Positions 3,658 to 55,035 of a stretch of DNA of 64,000 nucleotides are shown here, piece after piece; within the stretch, counting starts at the first letter, position 1, and each line of letters starts with the position of its first letter. A model generated the notes under the pieces. It was not told where the DNA came from, ran no database searches, and worked only from the letters and a program-made list of their open reading frames with translations. Source of the DNA: an uncultured Bacteroidota bacterium (lineage in GTDB: Bacteria; Bacteroidota; Rhodothermia; Balneolales; HLUCCA01); the NCBI GenBank assembly GCA_947085565.1, contig CAMTWZ010000006.1, positions 66,207 through 130,206 on the forward strand. The letters are read 5' to 3'. Both the position numbers and the translations under genes were made by a program.

Positions 3658-5433
3658 ATGAAAACGTTATTCCTCACGCCGCTTTTCCTGCTTGCGGCGA
3701 TCAGTCTGAACGCGCAATCGTTCAGCGCCGGACGCGTCTCCGTAACGGTGAAATCCGAGCAGGAAACGGTCGTTCCCGGATCACAAGCCCGGGTCGCTGT
3801 GGTGATGGACATCCAAGACGGATGGCACATCAACTCCCATAAGCCCACCTTGGATTGGTTGATCGGGACCGAGTTGACATTGACCTATCCAGAGGGATTG
3901 ACACAAAGCAGAATCGTCTATCCGCCATTCAAGATTTTCAAATTCGCCTTCGCGGATGATGAACTGGCCGTATATGAAGGGGAAGCGCCGATTTTTCTGA
4001 CGTTGGATATCTCCGCGGAGCTTCCTCCCGGCGCATATGCCGTCGAGGGACGCTTACGCGTTCAGGCCTGCGACGACCAGACCTGTCTTCCGCCCTCCAA
4101 CATCCCCGTGGCCTTCACGGTAACCGTAGGCGATGCGATGGTCGCCTCGAAGGATGGATCGTATTTCGATGGCGCGGCGAGCGGCACTGCCGATGGAGGG
4201 TTCATCACCTTCGACCAAGCCGGTGAACAGAACGCCATCGCGCAGCTCATCGACGAAAGCGGTTTGTTGTGGACATTCATCACCATCTTTTTCATCGGCT
4301 TGGCGCTGAATCTGACGCCCTGCGTGTATCCGATGCTCACGGTCACCGTGTCCATCTTCGGAAACCAGACGGATAGTAACATCCTCCGGGTCTTCTCCAA
4401 AGCCCTGATCTATGTGCTCGGCATCGCCACGATGTACAGCGTTCTGGGTGTGCTGGCGGCCTTGAGCGGTGGCTTGTTCGGTAGCGTCTTGCAATCACCC
4501 TGGGTCTTGTTCGCCATCGGTGTGATGCTTTTCGCGCTGGCACTGAGCTCCTTCGGTGTGTATGAAATCACGCTTCCGTATTGGCTCACCAGCAAACTGG
4601 GAGGAACGCAGTCCACCGGCTTCATCGGCGTGTATCTGTCGGGATTGGTGGTGGGCGTGTTCGCCGCGCCGTGCATCGGTCCGCCGGTGATCGCTTTGTT
4701 GGCCTTCGTAGGCGCCAAAGGGGATGTCTTTTTCGGATTCTGGAGCTTTTTCATCCTCTCGCTCGGACTCGGACTCCCGTATCTCATCCTCGGCACCTTC
4801 AGCGGCCTGCTGACCAAACTTCCCCGTTCCGGCGTGTGGATGATCTGGGTGAAAAAGCTCTTCGGTGTGGTGCTCGTGGGCGTGGCCTTGTTCTACATCG
4901 GTTTGGCGTTCTTCCCGAAACTCACGGTGTGGGTCATTCCTGCGACCTTGCTCATCGGCGGCGTCTATCTCGGATTCATCGAACGAAGCGGCTTTAACCA
5001 ACCACGGTTCCGAACCTTCAAATGGCTCTTGGGTATCGCGGCGATCGTCTTCGGGGTGCACATGTCGAACGTTCTGCTCAAGCCGAGCGTGCAATGGACA
5101 CCCTACACCACCGAAGCGTTCGATGCGGCCCGTGCTGATGGAAAGCCGATCGTGTTGGATTTCTACGCCGATTGGTGCATCCCGTGTCTGGAATTGGACC
5201 GGAGCACCTTCACCGATCCGACCGTGATCGAGACCTTGGAGCCTTATGCGCGGTTCAAAGTGGATCTGACGAATTTCGATTCTCCGGAATCAGAAGCGCT
5301 GCGTCAGCAGTTCGATGTGGCGGGAGTACCGACGATTCTGTTCATTGACGCGAATGGCTTGGAACGGCAAAACTCGAGGGTGATCGGATTCCTTCCTCCT
5401 AAGGAATTTCTGAGTAGGATGGTAGGATGGTAG
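3658..5433 (+). CDS. dsbD: thiol:disulfide interchange protein DsbD (N-terminal domain, membrane core, C-terminal thioredoxin)
   Basis: Signal peptide, a multi-pass core with LNLTPCVYPM and AAPCIGP Cys motifs, and a C-terminal DFYADWCIPC thioredoxin. The last 6 codons and the TAG stop lie inside the 8-nt array. Confidence 0.85.
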   Translation: MKTLFLTPLFLLAAISLNAQSFSAGRVSVTVKSEQETVVPGSQARVAVVMDIQDGWHINSHKPTLDWLIGTELTLTYPEGLTQSRIVYPPFKIFKFAFADDELAVYEGEAPIFLTLDISAELPPGAYAVEGRLRVQACDDQTCLPPSNIPVAFTVTVGDAMVASKDGSYFDGAASGTADGGFITFDQAGEQNAIAQLIDESGLLWTFITIFFIGLALNLTPCVYPMLTVTVSIFGNQTDSNILRVFSKALIYVLGIATMYSVLGVLAALSGGLFGSVLQSPWVLFAIGVMLFALALSSFGVYEITLPYWLTSKLGGTQSTGFIGVYLSGLVVGVFAAPCIGPPVIALLAFVGAKGDVFFGFWSFFILSLGLGLPYLILGTFSGLLTKLPRSGVWMIWVKKLFGVVLVGVALFYIGLAFFPKLTVWVIPATLLIGGVYLGFIERSGFNQPRFRTFKWLLGIAAIVFGVHMSNVLLKPSVQWTPYTTEAFDAARADGKPIVLDFYADWCIPCLELDRSTFTDPTVIETLEPYARFKVDLTNFDSPESEALRQQFDVAGVPTILFIDANGLERQNSRVIGFLPPKEFLSRMVGW

Positions 5434-5439
5434 GATGGT
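5414..5439 (+). repeat. tandem array (GTAGGATG) x3.25, left arm
   Basis: Read directly: units at 5414-5421, 5422-5429 and 5430-5437, plus gt. It encodes SRMVGW-stop of dsbD and abuts the stop codon (5439-5441) of the four-helix-bundle gene. Confidence 0.95.
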
Positions 5440-5789
5440 TACTTCAGAGAGCGACGTAGGAAAAACAGCTGCTTAAGTATGACAACGATGGATGCATTGA
5501 GCTCGTCGTAGGTCGATTTGTCGAGATAACCGAGATCGTGCGACAGGAGTAGTTGATATTCCAATTCCAGTCCGGATCCATGTGCGATTTCTATAAATCG
5601 TTGAAAGTCGCGATCACTGTCACGTGATGATCCTTCGGCGATGTTGCAGGGAATGGACATGCTCGCTCGTCTAACTTGACTCGTGAGCCCATAGAGTTCA
5701 TTCTTGGGAAAATTTGATGAGACCGAATAGATACGTACTGTCAGCGCATGGCTTTCAGACCACACTTTCAATTTCTTATAGTTATTCAT
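5439..5789 (-). CDS. four helix bundle protein (23S rRNA intervening sequence protein / Avd-like family)
   Basis: MNNYKKLKVWSESHALTVRIYSV..FPKNELYGLTSQVRRASMSIPCNIAEGSSR..FQRFIEIAHGSGLELEYQLLLS fits the family pattern. Start set at the internal ATG by parallel with the paralogue at 9395-9766. Confidence 0.85.
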   Translation of the reverse strand: MNNYKKLKVWSESHALTVRIYSVSSNFPKNELYGLTSQVRRASMSIPCNIAEGSSRDSDRDFQRFIEIAHGSGLELEYQLLLSHDLGYLDKSTYDELNASIVVILKQLFFLRRSLK

Positions 5790-5837
5790 TGTGCCCCTTA
5801 GGATGGTGATATCTCTATAGATGCGATAAAGCACGAA

Positions 5838-5865
5838 TTCTTACTCGATTTGCACAGATTTAGGA
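5838..5865 (-). promoter_or_regulatory. conserved leader/promoter motif of the four-helix-bundle cassette (plus-strand TTCTTAC-N7-GCACAGATTTAGGA)
   Basis: The same bipartite 21 conserved nt recur at 9814-9841, 48-49 nt from the ATG in both cases. On the coding strand the motif contains TAAATCTG, one mismatch from TAnnTTTG. Confidence 0.5.
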
Positions 5866-5912
5866 ACGTTCGATATTGAGGTACTAAATACCATCTACTA
5901 ATTACTAATATC

Positions 5913-5952
5913 CATCCTACCATCCTACCATCCTACCATCCTACCATCCTAC
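5913..5952 (+). repeat. tandem array (CATCCTAC) x5, right arm (reverse complement of left arm)
   Basis: Five perfect units at 5913-5952. The last unit contains the stop codon (5949-5951) of the RluA-family gene. Confidence 0.95.
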
Positions 5953-9369: not shown

Positions 9370-9397
9370 GATGCTAGATGCGGGATGCGAGATGCTA
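9370..9397 (+). repeat. tandem array (GATGCNN) x4, left arm
   Basis: Units gatgcta, gatgcgg, gatgcga, gatgcta, starting 3 nt after the clpB stop. It overlaps the stop codon of the four-helix-bundle gene at 9395. Confidence 0.9.
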
Positions 9398-9766
9398 TCG
9401 ACGTTTGGGAATATCTGACTCCACTTTTTTCATGAAGTTGATCAGCATGGACCGCAGATGATTCACTATTCCTGCTTCTCTATCCAAATCATCATTCGAA
9501 ATATAACCTAGGTCGCAGGCAATGATCAGATGACATTCGACTTCATTAGCGGAACCTAAAGCGATTTCAAGAAAACGATAAAAATCATTCGCTGATCTTC
9601 GCGACGCACCTTCCGCTATGTTCGCAGCGATAGTTGCCACTGCTCTGCATAATTGATTTGTCAGTCGGAAACGCTCCTTAGTAGGAAAATGGTCCGCTAA
9701 TAAGTAAATCTCCTTCGTCATGGTTCGAGACATTTGCCATATAGACAACTGTTTGAAATCTCTCAT
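9395..9766 (-). CDS. four helix bundle protein (23S rRNA intervening sequence protein / Avd-like family), second paralogue
   Basis: MRDFKQLSIWQMSRTMTKEIYLL..FPTKERFRLTNQLCRAVATIAANIAEGASRRS..FYRFLEIALGSANEVECHLII fits the family. The start at 9766 puts the conserved leader motif at the same distance as in cassette 1; 9787 is also possible. Confidence 0.85.
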   Translation of the reverse strand: MRDFKQLSIWQMSRTMTKEIYLLADHFPTKERFRLTNQLCRAVATIAANIAEGASRRSANDFYRFLEIALGSANEVECHLIIACDLGYISNDDLDREAGIVNHLRSMLINFMKKVESDIPKRR

Positions 9767-9813
9767 GTAATTCTCCTTATGGTTCATAATGTTAGGAGGC
9801 CATTTTTGAGGAT

Positions 9814-9841
9814 TTCTTACAAAATCAGCACAGATTTAGGA
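9814..9841 (-). promoter_or_regulatory. conserved leader/promoter motif, copy 2 (TTCTTAC-N7-GCACAGATTTAGGA)
   Basis: Identical 7-nt and 14-nt blocks with the same 7-nt spacer length as 5838-5865. Confidence 0.5.
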
Positions 9842-10442: not shown

Positions 10443-10648
10443 GAGGTATATCATTCTGGTTACGCCCATGAAAACCGCGGAAATGAAAAAATGTTGCCGA
10501 TCAGGGGTCAATTTTTGATGAAGTGACGACGCGTAAGAACTCCATTTCGAGTTGTGGATCACCCCAAATCATGGGTGCGAGGTATTCCTGAATTTAAAAT
10601 TTATCATTTAAAATTCGTCTAGCCGTATCTTTACGCCTCGATTGGAAT

Positions 10649-10734
10649 GCCGCAGTGGTGAAATGGTAGACACGTTGGACTTAAAATCCAATGAGCCTCA
10701 AAAGCTCGTACCGGTTCGAGTCCGGTCTGCGGTA
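10649..10734 (+). tRNA. tRNA-Leu (anticodon UAA), class II with long variable arm
   Basis: Hand-folded: acceptor GCCGCAG/CTGCGGT, 3-bp D stem, anticodon stem ttgga/tccaa with loop cTTAAaa, an 18-nt variable arm, and T arm accgg-ttcgagt-ccggt. CCA is not encoded. Confidence 0.9.
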
Positions 10735-18577: not shown

Positions 18578-18709
18578 GATGGTAGTTAGTAGCTGGTAGT
18601 TGGTAATTAGTAGTTAGTAGTTGGTTGTTGGTTGTTGTTTGTTGTGGTTTCGAATTTCAGATTCCACCCATCTGTACCACAAACAACTAACCACAAACAA
18701 CTAACTACC
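18578..18709. repeat. low-complexity inverted array pair forming an imperfect long hairpin (no cargo gene)
   Basis: The left side is 7-8-nt units (ggtagtta, ggtagtt, ggttgtt ...) running to gttgtttgttgtggt. A 27-nt loop follows, then the right arm accacaaacaactaaccacaaacaactaactacc. The pair spans from the pgm start codon to the stop codon of the GH47-like gene. Confidence 0.8.
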
Positions 18710-51929: not shown

Positions 51930-53186
51930 TTAGGTGTTTTCCAAAAAATAGGTCTGAACACGGTCTAAGAACAAAGCGGCATCATCGCTGTACATATCAA
52001 TCCGATTCCGATCGAAAATCTCCTTGCGGATGTATCGGACCGCCTCGGCATAGGTGTCGTAACGAGCAATATCCGCAATCGCCGAGGCATAGGCGCTTTC
52101 CTCATCCCCGAAAAGAGAGACGATGAACTCATGTTCCATATCCGACATCAATTCGAGGATGAGGGATGCCCTCGGGTCTTCGCTCGGATCCTTATTGTAA
52201 AAGTTCAGAATCGAGGGGGTTTCCTTTTCAACAGGTTCCTCTTTTTCGGCTTCTTCCTCACCAGGCATGAATCTCTGCCAGATCGGAATCACGATCGGCT
52301 CGGGGTCGATTTCAATCGGAGTCACGATTTCAGGTTCAGGTTCAGGTTCAGGTTCGGGCGCAATCTCAGGCTCTTCATCGATCACCGGTTCAGCGGCAAC
52401 TTCCTCCGCCACGACATCCGGCTCCGGAGCGAGAACAGCGATTTCTTGGATGACGTCATCTTCCAAGTCCTCAAAAGGTTGCGACAACAACTCGATCAGT
52501 TTCGATTTATCGACAGGTCGATCGAAATCCAAGAATTCGCGGGCTTCCACTTTCATGCCACGTTCGGCGAAATACGCGGCAAGTAGGTCGGGATCCACGC
52601 CATCGGGCATCAGTTCGAACATGGGGGAGAGCACTTGTCCCCAGTTCAGCGCAGTGTGATGCTCGGTGAGTTTGGAATCCACCGCTCTGAGGATGCGCGC
52701 GGCCTCATCCTTGCTGAGAACATCGATTTTTTTACGGTCCATGTAGCGAACCAGCGAATGAATGAGTTGCGGGTACACACCGGTTTTCGACACGCGCGAA
52801 GCCAGATGATCGCGGGTGAGGGAGGGAAGCGTTCCGTAAAGATAATCGGGCAGCGCGGTAAGCGGCTGAGACAGTTGATCGAGGATGTCTTCGATGCTGG
52901 TTTCCAAGACCGGCCGCGCATAAGAGATAGGTAGACGCGTTTCGGCCCGGATCGCTTCGAGGAATTGCACCCAAGCTTCTTGTACCGCATGGGCGTGCAT
53001 ATCGGCCCAATCGTTCTCTGGAAGAGTCACGGAATCGGCCAGATTCCGCTCTAGCTCCACTTTCACGCGGGCCACCACGAAATCGGGCCATCCGGCGTTC
53101 AATAGTTCGTTCAGGGTGAAATGGGAAAGGTTGTCGGGCAGTTGACCGACAAGCCTGTCGACGATGGATTGCAGTGGGTTTGACAT
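51930..53186 (-). CDS. hypothetical protein with central acidic Pro/Glu-repeat linker
   Basis: A 418-aa uninterrupted ORF, first in a co-directional run with the carboxyltransferase and rarA. I recognise no motif; the centre reads EPEIAPEPEPEPEPEIVTPIEIDPEP. Confidence 0.55.
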   Translation of the reverse strand: MSNPLQSIVDRLVGQLPDNLSHFTLNELLNAGWPDFVVARVKVELERNLADSVTLPENDWADMHAHAVQEAWVQFLEAIRAETRLPISYARPVLETSIEDILDQLSQPLTALPDYLYGTLPSLTRDHLASRVSKTGVYPQLIHSLVRYMDRKKIDVLSKDEAARILRAVDSKLTEHHTALNWGQVLSPMFELMPDGVDPDLLAAYFAERGMKVEAREFLDFDRPVDKSKLIELLSQPFEDLEDDVIQEIAVLAPEPDVVAEEVAAEPVIDEEPEIAPEPEPEPEPEIVTPIEIDPEPIVIPIWQRFMPGEEEAEKEEPVEKETPSILNFYNKDPSEDPRASLILELMSDMEHEFIVSLFGDEESAYASAIADIARYDTYAEAVRYIRKEIFDRNRIDMYSDDAALFLDRVQTYFLENT

Positions 53187-53225
53187 GATAGAATATACAA
53201 CCTTGGTGTGTACCTTTGGAACGTC

Positions 53226-53828
53226 ATGTGGCGTTTAACCATCTCAAAACTCACGCATTCTTTTGGCTCGAAACCGGTTTTCGAACCGTTGGAATTCGAT
53301 GCGGACATCCGCCGACTCGGCATTTCAGGAGCGAACGGCGCCGGAAAATCAACCTTGATGCGAATTCTCGCCGGATTGATGGAGCCCTCATCCGGCACCT
53401 TCGCATGGACCAAAGACGAAGTCTCGGTCGTGCCGGCCGACATCCGCCACAACCTCGGTTTTTCCGCTCCTTATCTGGGCATCTATCCGGAACTCACCGT
53501 TCGCGAGAATCTTGACTTCGTAGCTTCCTTGCGCGGATTGGGAGCACCGGAAGTGGCCACCGCCGCCGAACGTCTCGGGATGTCCGATTTCATGGAACAG
53601 CGTGCAGGGTCGTGTTCCTCGGGTCAGCAGCAGCGCTTGCGATTGGCCACATCCATCGTCCATTCACCTGGGTTACTTTTCTTGGACGAACCCGGCACCA
53701 ATCTCGATATCTCAGGGTTCGACACAGTGGCCGCACTCGTTAGAGATTGGCCCGGATCCGTGGTCTTGGCCAGCAATCAATCCGACGAACTGAGTTGGTG
53801 TTTGGAACGGTTGACGGTTGACGGTTGA
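53226..53828 (+). CDS. ABC transporter ATP-binding protein (short, CcmA-like size; no permease adjacent)
   Basis: Walker A GANGAGKST, signature CSSGQQQRL, and Walker B LLFLDEP. The last codons and the TGA lie inside the (CGGTTGA)n array. Confidence 0.8.
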   Translation: MWRLTISKLTHSFGSKPVFEPLEFDADIRRLGISGANGAGKSTLMRILAGLMEPSSGTFAWTKDEVSVVPADIRHNLGFSAPYLGIYPELTVRENLDFVASLRGLGAPEVATAAERLGMSDFMEQRAGSCSSGQQQRLRLATSIVHSPGLLFLDEPGTNLDISGFDTVAALVRDWPGSVVLASNQSDELSWCLERLTVDG

Positions 53829-53832
53829 CGGT
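53808..53832 (+). repeat. tandem array (CGGTTGA) x3.5
   Basis: Read directly. It encodes LTVDG-stop of the ABC ATPase. Confidence 0.9.
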
Positions 53833-53835
53833 TTT

Positions 53836-53934
53836 CACGCTTCCACGCTTTCACGCTTTCACGCTTTCACGCTTTCACGCTTCCACGCTTCCACGCTTTC
53901 ACGCTTTCACGCTTCCACGCTTTCACGCTTCCAC
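53836..53934 (+). repeat. tandem array (CACGCTTY) x12.4
   Basis: Twelve contiguous 8-nt units (Y pattern C T T T T C C T T C T C) plus cac, ending exactly at the ATG of the M29 aminopeptidase gene. Confidence 0.95.
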
Positions 53935-55035
53935 ATGGACCATCTTCTCGCTCAAAAACTTCTCCGCTTCAGTGTGAATCTTCAACCGGGAGAGAACATT
54001 CTCATCCAATTGTCGGGATTGAACGGCATCGGGTTGGTCCGTGCCTTGGCCGAATATGCGAGGGCGATCGGGGCGCATCCTTTCTTCAACATCCAGGATA
54101 CCGAAACGCAGCGCATCTTGCTCGAATCTGGTGACGCGGCGTATTGGGAGCGCCAGGCCCAGGTTGACGGACTCCCGCTCATGAAGCAGATGGATGCCTT
54201 CATCGGAATCCGGGCTTCGCTCAATATTTATGAATCGGCGGATGTGAACAAAGCGGCGAACAAGGCCTATGCGGAGCAGTATCTGCATCCCGTCCATTTC
54301 GAAGAGCGGGTGAAGCGCACGAAATGGTGCATCCTCCGCTATCCGAGCGAGGCGTTCGCGATGAACGCGAAAATGCCGACCTCCCGCTTCACCGACTATT
54401 TCTACAAGGCCTGCCTTTTGGATTACAGCCGCTTGCAGGAAGCCATGAAGCCCTTGGAAGAGCTTCTCCGCGCCGGAAAAGAGATTCATCTCAAGGGGGA
54501 AGGGACCGATATCCGCTTCTCCATCGAAGGTCAGAACTGGGTGCCTTGCTACGGAACGCATAACATCCCTGATGGGGAATTGTTCAGTGCTCCGCTACTT
54601 TATTCAGTGAACGGACACATCCGTTACGCGCCGACGGTGTATCAAGGGAAACCCTTCGAATTCGTCGAACTTCATGTGAAAGACGGAGTCGTGGTGGATT
54701 TCGATTCGTCAAACAATTCAGCATTGCGTGACATCCTCGACACCGATGAAGGCGCGCGCCGTTTCGGTGAATTCAGCTTCGGAACCAACCCGGTCATCGA
54801 ATTCCCGATGTATGACGTTCTCTTCGATGAGAAGATCTACGGGTCGAACCATCTCACTTTGGGACAGGATTATGACGAGGCTGCCAACGGTAATAAGAGC
54901 GCCATCCACTGGGATCTGGTCTGCATCGGTGCCGATGTGGTTTTGGATGGGATGTTGATCCGAAAAGGGCGCGAATTCGTGCACAAAAGCCTGTTAGGCC
55001 TTAATCCTAAGGCTTTGTTGGTATCAGGTGGATAA
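53935..55035 (+). CDS. M29 family aminopeptidase (AmpS/PepS-like)
   Basis: The N-terminus MDHLLAQKLLRFSVNLQPGENILIQ and overall collinearity fit the thermophilic metalloprotease (M29) family. The upstream 39 codons are pure repeat. Confidence 0.8.
   Translation: MDHLLAQKLLRFSVNLQPGENILIQLSGLNGIGLVRALAEYARAIGAHPFFNIQDTETQRILLESGDAAYWERQAQVDGLPLMKQMDAFIGIRASLNIYESADVNKAANKAYAEQYLHPVHFEERVKRTKWCILRYPSEAFAMNAKMPTSRFTDYFYKACLLDYSRLQEAMKPLEELLRAGKEIHLKGEGTDIRFSIEGQNWVPCYGTHNIPDGELFSAPLLYSVNGHIRYAPTVYQGKPFEFVELHVKDGVVVDFDSSNNSALRDILDTDEGARRFGEFSFGTNPVIEFPMYDVLFDEKIYGSNHLTLGQDYDEAANGNKSAIHWDLVCIGADVVLDGMLIRKGREFVHKSLLGLNPKALLVSGG

Follow-up and report, generated by a model that had tools for sequence, protein, structure and literature searches.

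The interval between an ABC transporter ATPase gene and an M29 aminopeptidase gene in an uncultured member of the Balneolales is filled by two short tandem repeat arrays, and our analysis indicates that these are probably non-coding microsatellites, amplified in place from local sequence by slippage and tolerated there. The junction is a clear example of a type of array that is common in Balneolales, and it is neither a new switch nor a broken cassette. Positions given below are those of the window, the whole stretch of 64,000 nucleotides that was analysed.

The upstream gene (53226..53828, plus strand) encodes a CcmA-like ABC transporter ATP-binding protein (Pfam ABC_tran, E 3e-23; the NCBIfam match fell below the equivalog cut-off). 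It probably starts at the ATG at 53226, in a reading frame that is open from a GTG at 53208, and it ends in ...WCLERLTVDG-TGA, with the stop codon (53826-53828) inside the first array and the C-terminal tail of the protein encoded by that array. The downstream gene (53935..55035, plus strand) encodes an M29 family aminopeptidase (Pfam Peptidase_M29, E 1e-47), in which no secretion domain was detected by Pfam. The order of the two genes is kept across Balneolales, and they are presumably co-transcribed.

TRF and direct reading of the sequence both bore out the original prediction that two adjacent arrays fill the intergenic space, and they occupy the whole gap from the stop codon ending at 53828 to the ATG at 53935. 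The first, (ACGGTTG)x3.9, lies on the plus strand at 53807..53833 (period 7, 100% matches) and overlaps the last codons of the ATPase (...RLTVDG). The second, (TTYCACGC)x12.8, lies at 53833..53934 on the same strand (period 8, 92% matches, unit TTTCACGC) and is 102 nt long. Read directly, it consists of 12 full units of CACGCTT plus an eighth base, which runs C,T,T,T,T,C,C,T,T,C,T,C along the array in an aperiodic pattern, followed by CAC|ATG. Both arrays are therefore made of head-to-tail units of high identity, and both adjoin a stop or a start codon. A CRISPR array was ruled out, as the units are 7-8 nt long and contiguous, without spacers, whereas CRISPR repeats are 23-50 nt long and separated by unique spacers.

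The heptamer array carries TGA at 53812-14, 53819-21 and 53826-28, one per reading frame, and the last of these is the stop codon of the ATPase. Because every unit carries TGA, three 7-mer units close all three frames, and the ATPase therefore always terminates before the octamer array, the sense strand of which has no stop codon. For the same reason, a change in the number of units cannot move the ATPase into a long alternative frame. The octamer array is non-coding and G-poor, and it terminates precisely at the aminopeptidase ATG.

The original prediction had also noted a frame that is open from a TTG at 53818 through the octamer array into the aminopeptidase gene, and ORF translation confirmed that it would read (FHASTLSR)n. 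If this frame were used, the octamer would be translated as an N-terminal extension and, since changes in unit number would shift the frame, the array would be a phase-variable coding repeat. We give this almost no credence. In the best 80 of 208 genomic relatives the alignment begins at residue 1, 2 or 5 of the protein translated from the ATG, almost all of the best 120 protein homologues are 360-379 aa long, and the closest among the matches listed all begin MDHLLAQ or MSDHLLAQ, which is why we take the extension to be non-coding. Moreover, in-frame stops precede the ATG by 4-7 codons in two relatives (L002 and L005), array lengths among the relatives are not multiples of three units, and the Pfam domain match starts only at residue 5. 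Judged from these sequence comparisons, the extension is not conserved and the ATG at 53935 is the true start; a 405-aa repeat-extended aminopeptidase should not be called in annotation.

The same junction in related genomes

We compared the junction among eight closely related allele types (L001, L002, L005 and L161-L174). Relatives with M29 proteins 82-93% identical to that of the window share the same two-part array design, with octamer units that have drifted. There is a single octamer unit in L172-174, in which the gap from stop to ATG is only 11 nt and the sequence is ATTTCCAC|ATG. Three units (TTTCACGY) are present in L165-168, four in L161/162 and L169-171, five in L001 and in L164 (unit TTTCACAY), about nine in L002, and 12.8 in the window. 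Except for L002 (82%), all members of this series have M29 proteins that are 91-93% identical. The junction of L163 carries (AACCCTC)x3 and then TTTCCAC|ATG. The array is conserved in position and variable in length (1 to 12.8 units) and sequence. The idea of a slippage-prone microsatellite, put forward originally, is supported by these differences in copy number and unit sequence among close relatives at one junction.

A TTCCAC-like unit always immediately precedes the ATG, and the TTCCAC|ATG leader is conserved throughout; a leader of this kind also occurs in single or double copy in the more distant Gracilimonas genomes L028 and L030. In more distant Balneolales the two genes are likewise paired, but 15-40 nt without any repeat separate them. 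The units of the orthologous arrays vary (TTYCACGC, AYTTYCAC, AACCCTC, ATTTAAM). The heptamer position holds three alternative units, namely ACGGTTG (also found in L164), GTAGACC, and a GGGACGA type (GGGACGA/GGACGTA), each of which contains a stop codon and overlaps the codons for the conserved C-terminal T-L-x-V-(D/G). The octamer array is best read as an amplification of the conserved TTYCAC|ATG leader, and both arrays can, on this comparison, be derived by amplification from a single-copy ancestor of the kind retained in L172-174.

We propose that slipped-strand amplification (replication slippage) of short local sequences at the present site would have generated both arrays. The last codons of the ATPase together with its stop codon would have been the source of the heptamer, and the native leader ATTTCCAC, directly upstream of the aminopeptidase ATG, that of the octamer. 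A gap of ~11-40 nt within a likely operon would in this way have been stretched to 106 nt. The arrays would be nearly neutral and would persist because they do little harm: the 7-mer supplies stops, the octamer is G-poor and unstructured, and the TTCCAC|ATG context is left untouched. At most, translational coupling or the efficiency of aminopeptidase initiation may be altered. On this account, the locus would be a well-resolved case of intergenic microsatellite birth and growth, in which, within one species complex, a lone 8-nt leader and the region of a stop codon have expanded into arrays of 1 to 13 units.

Where contigs from 2-4 independent samples encoded an identical M29 protein, their arrays were identical as well, all of them short and imperfect, with 1-4 units; on a short time scale the stability of the 12.8-unit array could differ in either direction from what we have assumed. 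Searches for exact-protein matches to the window M29 (with both candidate starts) or to the ABC ATPase found none, the best relative being 93% identical. A metagenome scan with the M29 protein recovered relatives at ≤75% identity only and no strain-level variants, and the DNA retrieved was added to the census described below.

Could the array or its copy number be an assembly artefact, produced by repeat collapse or expansion? The short-read contigs of L163 and L168 end inside arrays, ~50 nt upstream of the ATG, which shows that assemblers struggle at such sites and offers an explanation for contig breaks there. An artefact is nonetheless highly improbable for the window, since the 102-nt array is shorter than typical reads, the T/C variants within it anchor reads, and homologous arrays are present in many independent assemblies (NCBI, JGI, ENA, Logan).

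Arrays across Balneolales and possible effects on expression

The census covered 161 sequences comprising 1.16 Mb of Balneolales DNA, in loci that are all centred on one gene, partly orthologous and not independent; genes were called as simple ORFs, which make up ~89% of the DNA. We found 67 arrays of period 7, 8, 14 or 16 (45 of period 7/8 and 22 of period 14/16), or approximately one per 17 kb. Fifty-two were intergenic, 8 overlapped a gene end and 7 were inside an ORF. Arrays with periods that are multiples of three were placed differently, those of period 6, 9, 12, 18 and 24 lying wholly inside ORFs and those of period 15, 21 and 30 mostly so. Twenty shuffles of the window (1.28 Mb) yielded no arrays of period 7 or 8; within these loci, all centred on one gene, such periods are over-represented. 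A long array is present, for instance, in the cultured Gracilimonas mengyeensis DSM 21985 (L048), where (TGAGTTC)x14 immediately follows the M29 stop. The original prediction had raised the question of enrichment at gene ends, and in the census most arrays, 42, lay against a stop codon and 14 against a start codon. A stop codon was present inside 60% of the stop-adjacent units, compared with 36-40% of random units. The remark that four arrays in 64 kb are unusual holds for bacteria in general but, given the density in related DNA, not for Balneolales.

The unit was different at every array in the window and in the census loci, with no unit shared genome-wide. Locus-specific units argue against a shared binding protein and for a mutational cause linked to polymerase or repair. 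The same slippage process would be at work throughout Balneolales, whose intergenic DNA is rich in period 7-8 arrays with locus-specific units.

An ON/OFF phase switch of the aminopeptidase, one of the roles first suggested for the array, was unsupported. The octamer lies outside the coding sequence of a protein whose homologues (360-370 aa) have MDHLLAQ or MSDHLLAQ starts, and samples sharing an M29 protein have identical arrays. No sigma-70 promoter-like hexamers were present in or around the array, in a scan whose scope does not extend to Bacteroidota-type promoters; within that scope, the repeat is neither in coding sequence nor between promoter elements. The gene affected would be an M29 aminopeptidase, not a surface, host-interaction or restriction-modification target.

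We also looked for other signals at the junction. RNA from the array region folds no better than shuffled sequences (z +0.8 to +1.9, that is, less structured), a scan between the ABC ATPase and M29 genes found no intrinsic terminator-like site, and an Rfam search of the whole window at gathering thresholds returned one tRNA only, with no known RNA family over the arrays. A 17-nt match with 76% complementarity between the end of the heptamer array and M29 codons 13-18 was judged to be due to chance, because those codons belong to conserved coding sequence and no such pairing would be possible in relatives with other 7-mers. A Rho-utilisation site, considered for the C-rich, G-poor octamer, was set aside, as the array directly adjoins a start codon and the majority of other arrays are rich in G.

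Tuning of the level of the aminopeptidase by the array is possible. The octamer RNA, (UUYCACGC)n, could serve as a pyrimidine-rich, unstructured translational enhancer or as a platform for an RNA-binding protein, with copy number tuning aminopeptidase output; candidates include ribosomal protein S1, a cold-shock protein or a similar single-strand RNA-binding protein. Bacteria of the FCB group largely lack Shine-Dalgarno-led initiation, which counts in favour of such a leader, as do the termination of the array exactly at the ATG, its unstructured RNA, the G-poor composition of pre-start census arrays (16% G) and the range of 1 to 12.8 copies among relatives. A like proposal exists for the TAACTGA arrays of Beggiatoaceae/Flexibacter that end a few nt before start codons (PMC4679880). 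We nevertheless regard this role as rather unlikely. Units differ at every locus, even among the orthologous arrays, making a sequence-specific binder unlikely; one unit suffices in L172-174; a cytoplasmic housekeeping peptidase is not a typical contingency target; and independent samples with the same protein carry identical arrays. The two-part design has been kept since the 82% identity level, however, and its all-frame stops and G-poor leader could reflect selection for function instead of tolerance.

Relation to PF05635 cassettes

Other arrays in the window, reported earlier at 5.4, 9.4 and 18.6 kb, are present as described. Two PF05635 cassettes lie in the window, each with inverted arms of tandem 7-8-mers that adjoin stop codons, and an arm-only hairpin is present at 18.6 kb. 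The cassettes at loci L037 and L040 are likewise flanked by tandem 7-8-mers against stop codons, with locus-specific units derived from local sequence, and the arms of L040 are unequal, with 11.4 units on the left and ~3 degenerate units on the right. Cassette arm units, too, are built from local sequence: at the dsbD/rluA site, the empty form in relatives is GTAGG-AATC-CCTAC, and in the window the arms read (GTAGGATG)n and (CATCCTAC)n. A transposon target-site duplication was rejected as the source of the arm unit, the arms being inverted and not direct. For cassette 2, an occupied-versus-empty comparison was attempted via an outer-membrane protein gene, and the sole relative retrieved, L184 (83%), was not syntenic. 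Literature searches found no published account of PF05635/TIGR02436 with tandem-repeat flanks.

The original prediction had related our arrays to these arms. The relationship stands insofar as both belong to the same class (period 7-8, locus-specific units, stop-adjacent, derived from local sequence); the suggestion that the junction is a one-armed cassette does not. If it were, the arrays would be the surviving arms of one or two PF05635 ('23S rRNA IVS protein') cassettes whose gene and partner arms had decayed or been deleted, an idea to which the two window cassettes with their stop-adjacent inverted arms, the arm-only hairpin and the very unequal arms of L040 lend some substance. It is very unlikely, because the two arrays are not complementary to one another and, as had been stated from the outset, there is no inverted partner in the window. 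The 16-mer CACGCTTYCACGCTTY occurs 11 times in the window, on the plus strand and in the octamer array only (chance expectation ~0.14), with no reverse-strand copy, and matches within ~0.5 kb are weak and at chance level. There is no PF05635/TIGR02436 ORF within 53208-55035 and hence no such gene between arms, tblastn with the two window PF05635 proteins found no PF05635 gene at this junction in 160 loci, and neither the gene nor an inverted partner is present at the orthologous junction in the eight close allele types or in ~150 more distant loci; no relative examined has the partner (GCGTGAAA)n between the ABC ATPase and M29 genes. Furthermore, the arrays, and the octamer in particular, can be traced to the single-copy ancestral sequence ATTTCCAC|ATG, and 43 of the 67 census arrays are solo, without an inverted partner, against 24 that are paired.

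It is also conceivable, if quite unlikely, that solo arrays and cassette arms are products of one dedicated repeat-building process, linked to the Avd-like cassettes, that copies local sequence at Balneolales gene termini. Cassettes could then insert precisely between stop codons with arms written in the target's own sequence, GTAGG-AATC-CCTAC becoming (GTAGGATG)n-gene-(CATCCTAC)n, and the solo arrays at 53807-53934 would mark activity of the process without a cassette, being neither passive slippage nor regulatory. In the reading that we prefer, slippage in place, the same process may also supply the repeat arms of the PF05635 four-helix-bundle cassettes elsewhere in the window. The link between this class of 7-8-mer repeats and four-helix-bundle cassettes may merit separate study.

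Comparison with known repeat systems

The arrays resemble the SSR contingency loci of Haemophilus, Neisseria and Helicobacter in having units that are not a multiple of three and a copy number that changes between lineages. In those loci, however, the repeat lies within coding sequence or between promoter hexamers and a one-unit change switches the gene, whereas here it lies between a stop and a start codon, the 7-mer closes all frames, and a housekeeping peptidase is the gene product. With the PF05635/TIGR02436 ('23S rRNA intervening sequence protein', Avd-like) cassettes, the junction shares the class of tandem 7-8-mer repeat, but it has no four-helix-bundle gene or inverted partner and no sign of having had either.

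Heptamers of the GGGAATC / GGGGAYT type in Xanthomonas and Nostoc, and the cyanobacterial STRR heptamers, offer a nearer parallel (Rehm et al. 2015, PMC4692102). For these heptamers, slippage tied to the polymerase footprint was proposed (PMC4692102). As in our case, they are strongly over-represented in intergenic DNA, whether as solo arrays or as convergent inverted pairs, and the arrays keep their position between related species while length and sequence vary. Unlike ours, they are G-rich, quadruplex-forming and of one family per genome; the arrays described here are not G4-prone and have units that differ from locus to locus.

TAACTGA and other intergenic heptamer direct-repeat arrays have been described in Beggiatoaceae, Cyanobacteria and some Bacteroidetes (MacGregor 2015, PMC4679880). 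In Gramella, Aequorivita and Elizabethkingia, a single intergenic region contains several arrays of different heptamers, and in close relatives the corresponding two genes are separated by a short gap that lacks repeats (PMC4679880). The recurrence of one unit, TAACTGA, throughout a genome and in different phyla pointed to a shared binding protein or to horizontal transfer (PMC4679880). Like the arrays at our junction, these consist of head-to-tail intergenic 7-nt units with no predicted RNA structure, many of them finish a few nt short of a start codon or lie directly behind a stop codon, and stop codons within the unit mean that overlap with gene ends is only brief. Our arrays are distinguished by locus-specific units, by a mixture of periods 7 and 8, and by the visible origin of the units in local stop- and start-proximal sequence. 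Balneolales can be added to the lineages in which intergenic 7-8-mers abound, alongside Cyanobacteria, Beggiatoaceae, Xanthomonas and some Bacteroidetes.

Two arrays between the ABC ATPase and aminopeptidase genes

Between an ABC ATPase gene (ABC_tran, E 3e-23) and an M29 aminopeptidase gene (Peptidase_M29, E 1e-47, domain from residue 5), both on the + strand, Tandem Repeats Finder (TRF) identified a heptamer array at 53807-53833 (+; unit ACGGTTG, period 7, 3.9 copies, 100%) and an octamer array at 53833-53934 (+; unit TTTCACGC, period 8, 12.8 copies, 92%). Positions 53800-53940 read ...GAACGGTTGACGGTTGACGGTTGACGG TTTTCACGCTTCCACGC...CACGCTTCCAC followed by ATG. The ATPase ORF ends ...WCLERLTVDG with its TGA (53826-53828) inside the heptamer array, and the aminopeptidase ORF runs from ATG 53935. 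The octamer has a single variable position, T or C, which in its 12 units reads C,T,T,T,T,C,C,T,T,C,T,C before a final CAC and the ATG. A 16-nt two-unit octamer probe gave 11 matches (0.14 expected), all on the + strand and all within the array, and the octamer therefore has no inverted partner in the window. The original prediction, made from the sequence alone, had described the arrays, the missing partner and an M29 frame open from TTG 53818 that would read (FHASTLSR)n; by sequence, TRF and ORF translation it proved exact in all these details. A hexamer repeat nearby, (TTCAGG)x4.5 at 52329-52355, lies inside a 418-aa ORF (51930-53186, - strand) with no Pfam match and encodes an in-frame (PE)n run that forms part of an acidic, proline-rich linker; it is an ordinary coding repeat.

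We scanned a genome collection with the M29 protein and found 208 relatives. The best 80 of these, as listed, were all Balneolales (Balneolaceae, Gracilimonas, Rhodohalobacter and metagenome-assembled genomes), with identities of up to 91% (locus L001; 82% for L002 and L005), and in all 80 the alignment begins at residue 1, 2 or 5 of the protein as read from the ATG. When the extended 405-aa version was queried against 5.8 billion proteins, the best 120 homologues listed had, with few exceptions, lengths of 360-379 aa, and the repeat part had no match in any of those listed. The closest cluster (91-93% identical) has N-termini MDHLLAQKLL or MSDHLLAQKLL, and L002 and L005 carry an in-frame stop 4-7 codons upstream of the M29 ATG. 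Together these data show that the aminopeptidase starts at ATG 53935 and that the octapeptide extension put forward in the original prediction is non-coding.

The heptamer places TGA at 53812, 53819 and 53826, one per frame, and the ATPase thus terminates inside the array at any count of at least three units. The octamer has no sense-strand stop in any frame, so it is the heptamer that halts read-through towards M29. RNA folding of the region was no better than that of shuffles (z +1.89 for 53780-53990, +0.82 for 53829-53950), Rfam placed no family on the arrays (its only match in the window being a tRNA gene at 10649-10734), and a scan for sigma-70-type promoters and intrinsic terminators detected neither between the genes. 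With stops in all frames, a position in the leader, no structure and no promoter-like site or terminator, a one-unit change cannot switch either gene on or off; by their position and by the kind of gene downstream the arrays do not pass the defining tests of a phase-variation locus, and the proposed ON/OFF switch was not borne out. The effect of a change in unit number would be limited to the length of an unstructured, G-poor leader, with the TTCCAC-ATG context left intact. The 106-nt gap, compared with 11 nt in L172-174, should loosen any termination-reinitiation coupling. The end of the heptamer array (53822-53838) shows 76% complementarity, across 17 nt, to M29 codons 13-18 (53972-53988), and pairing there would place the octamer and start codon in a loop; since no such pairing is open to relatives that have other 7-mers, we attributed the match to chance.

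The same junction in relatives

The ABC ATPase-M29 gene pair is conserved across Balneolales. Distant members have a gap of 15-40 nt without a repeat (e.g. L003, L009, L011, L017, L018, L020), and in close relatives the gap is built in the same two parts with differing contents. L172-174 carry a degenerate GGACGAG/GGACCTA at the 7-mer site and one ATTTCCAC unit before the ATG, with a stop-to-ATG gap of 11 nt. L165-168 have (GTAGACC)x3 followed by (TTTCACGY)x3, while L161/162 and L169-171 have a GGGACGA-type 7-mer followed by (AYTTYCAC)x4, and L001 has the 7-mer type of L161 with 5 octamer units. The 7-mer unit of the window recurs in L164, as (ACGGTTG)x3.5 before (TTTCACAY)x5; L163 has (TAGACCG)n before (AACCCTC)x3 plus TTTCCAC, L002 has (CCGTAGA)x3 before (TTTCACGY)x~9, and the window itself has (ACGGTTG)x3.9 before (TTYCACGC)x12.8.

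The six bases 5' of the M29 ATG are TTCCAC-like in every close relative, and in the more distant Gracilimonas loci L028 and L030 one or two copies of TTTCCAC precede the ATG. It follows that the octamer array is the native leader in amplified form. Transitions account for the drift of its units (TTYCAC is followed by GC, GT, AT or AC), and changes in its length come as whole units. At the heptamer position we found three alternative units; all of them contain a stop codon and overlap the conserved C-terminal T-L-x-V-(D/G) codons. Contigs of 2-4 independent samples with an identical M29 protein had identical arrays, so turnover of these short, imperfect arrays is seen between lineages, not among samples of one lineage. 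The slippage reading of the original prediction thus held for turnover between lineages and fell away as regards a switch. Short-read contigs of two relatives have their first bases within the 7-mer array that closely precedes M29 (L163 1-49, L168 1-53); the arrays are therefore assembly break points, and draft copy numbers need care.

We consider it likely that the arrays are microsatellites of a type common in this lineage, that they arose where they now lie, and that the all-frame stops and the unstructured leader make them tolerable. The heptamer would have arisen from stop-proximal and the octamer from start-proximal sequence.

Cassettes and their arms

Two four-helix-bundle ORFs (PF05635 / TIGR02436) lie in the window at 5439-5834 (-; E 1e-36) and 9395-9787 (-; E 2e-32), each in a cassette whose flanking inverted tandem arrays touch the stop codons of convergent neighbours. 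The two proteins are only 42% identical. A 14-nt motif upstream of the gene, GCACAGATTTAGGA (5852-5865, 9828-9841), is identical in the two cassettes and occurs in none of the 184 fetched loci; in the sense orientation of the gene it is TCCTAAATCTGTGC, which resembles the Bacteroidetes -7 promoter box, TAnnTTTG. An outer-membrane beta-barrel protein at 9891-10562 matches database entry P0255 (NCBI, Logan) at 100% identity.

Comparison with the closest relatives (cf. L175 1290-1315, L179 2830-2865) shows that the cassette between dsbD and rluA (5414-5952) is inserted DNA: in L175-177 (RluA 95% identical) and L179-183 (74%) the gap is 6-20 nt, without cassette or array. The empty site reads ...GTTG TAG GAATCC CTA CTTC..., its small palindrome GTAGG-AATC-CCTAC being made of the two stop codons, and the window has (GTAGGATG)x3.2, a 472-nt cassette and (CCATCCTA)x5.1. 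Since the arm unit GTAGGATG/CATCCTAC contains halves of this palindrome, the arms reproduce the sequence of their own target. The left arm takes the place of the final ~25 nt of dsbD, and the length of dsbD stays the same (RMNGL-stop to RMVGW-stop). A more interesting lead than the ABC/M29 arrays, lying outside them, is the insertion of the cassettes between stop codons, their arms being copies of target sequence.

Arms and solo arrays (those lacking an inverted partner) are both made from local sequence, which makes them relatives in kind, as had been proposed. The more specific idea of a one-armed cassette did not survive: no partner was found in the window, the heptamer and octamer arrays are not complementary to each other, and the junction has no four-helix-bundle gene in the close allele types or, by tblastn, in the 160 loci. 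By its defining tests the arrays are not such a cassette, and nothing in these comparisons suggests that one was ever there.

The Balneolaceae relatives L037 and L040 carry similar cassettes, with very unequal arms in L040 (11.4 vs ~3 degenerate units). In both, four-helix-bundle gene remnants (L040 5532-6149, L037 5534-6118) come just 3' of a LuxR-type gene that is near M29. Inverted (TGATTCGG/TGATTGGG)n arms lie on either side of them, and the first TGA of the arm is the LuxR gene stop. At 18578-18705 (-) in the window, two arrays fill the whole stop-to-start gap between co-directional genes, a 311-aa ORF and a phosphoglucosamine-mutase-like gene, with G/T-rich (TAGTTGTTTGTGGT)x2 next to the stop and, ahead of the start, a longer array of C/A-rich 7-mers. 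The layout is like that at ABC/M29, except that these two arrays pair: their partial complementarity gives a long hairpin on folding (-36.7 kcal/mol, z -2.56).

Arrays across Balneolales and known repeat systems

A TRF census of the window and 160 Balneolales loci (1.16 Mb; loci all centred on one gene and partly orthologous, genes as simple ORF calls) returned 177 non-redundant arrays, 67 with period 7, 8, 14 or 16. Although ~89% of the DNA is ORF, 52 of these 67 were intergenic, 8 overlapped a gene end and 7 lay within an ORF; arrays with a period that is a multiple of 3 were wholly (6, 9, 12, 18, 24) or mostly (15, 21, 30) in ORFs. No array of period 7 or 8 arose in 1.28 Mb of Markov-shuffled window sequence (20 shuffles). 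A stop codon lay no more than 30 nt away from 42 census arrays, and for 14 a start codon was that close. On the sense strand, stop-adjacent arrays were G-rich and C-poor (32% G, 13% C), with a stop codon in 60% of units compared with 36-40% of random units; start-adjacent arrays were G-poor (16% G). Arrays occupied 6.4% of co-directional, 6.0% of convergent and 2.5% of divergent gaps; 43 were solo and 24 had an inverted partner. The window octamer was third longest among 45 period-7/8 arrays. Others included (ATTCGTT)x12 upstream of M29 after the preceding gene's stop (L036 3833-3916), (TGAGTTC)x14.4 and (GAGGTTG)x17.4 immediately 3' of the M29 stop (L048 5084-5184, Gracilimonas mengyeensis, and L092 3056-3177), (AGTAGTG)x8.9 filling an entire stop-to-start gap (L132 1670-1731) and four different arrays in a single gap (L105 2664-2975). 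In the window, an A/T-rich period-7 repeat, (AATTTAA)x3.6 at 10591-10615, adjoins the tRNA gene.

The arrays belong to an already known kind of intergenic heptamer-type repeats. TAACTGA arrays occur in Beggiatoaceae, Cyanobacteria and five Bacteroidetes, many just after stop codons or a few nucleotides from start codons; the unit contains stop codons and has no predicted RNA structure, and Gramella, Aequorivita and Elizabethkingia have several heptamer arrays in gaps that are short and free of repeats in close relatives (MacGregor 2015, PMC4679880). GGGAATC arrays of Xanthomonas are solo or in inverted pairs, with positions conserved between species and lengths variable, and a proposal cited there attributes the heptamer excess to a polymerase footprint (Rehm et al. 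2015, PMC4692102). S1, Csp or CsrA have been suggested as possible binders of TAACTGA arrays (PMC4679880). A real tuning or binding function for the window arrays seems to us improbable, and their locus-specific units, mixed periods and local origin argue against a common sequence-specific binder. The window arrays fit the kind described by MacGregor and Rehm et al., and differ from it in a unit specific to the locus, in mixing 7-nt and 8-nt periods and in a traceable local origin.
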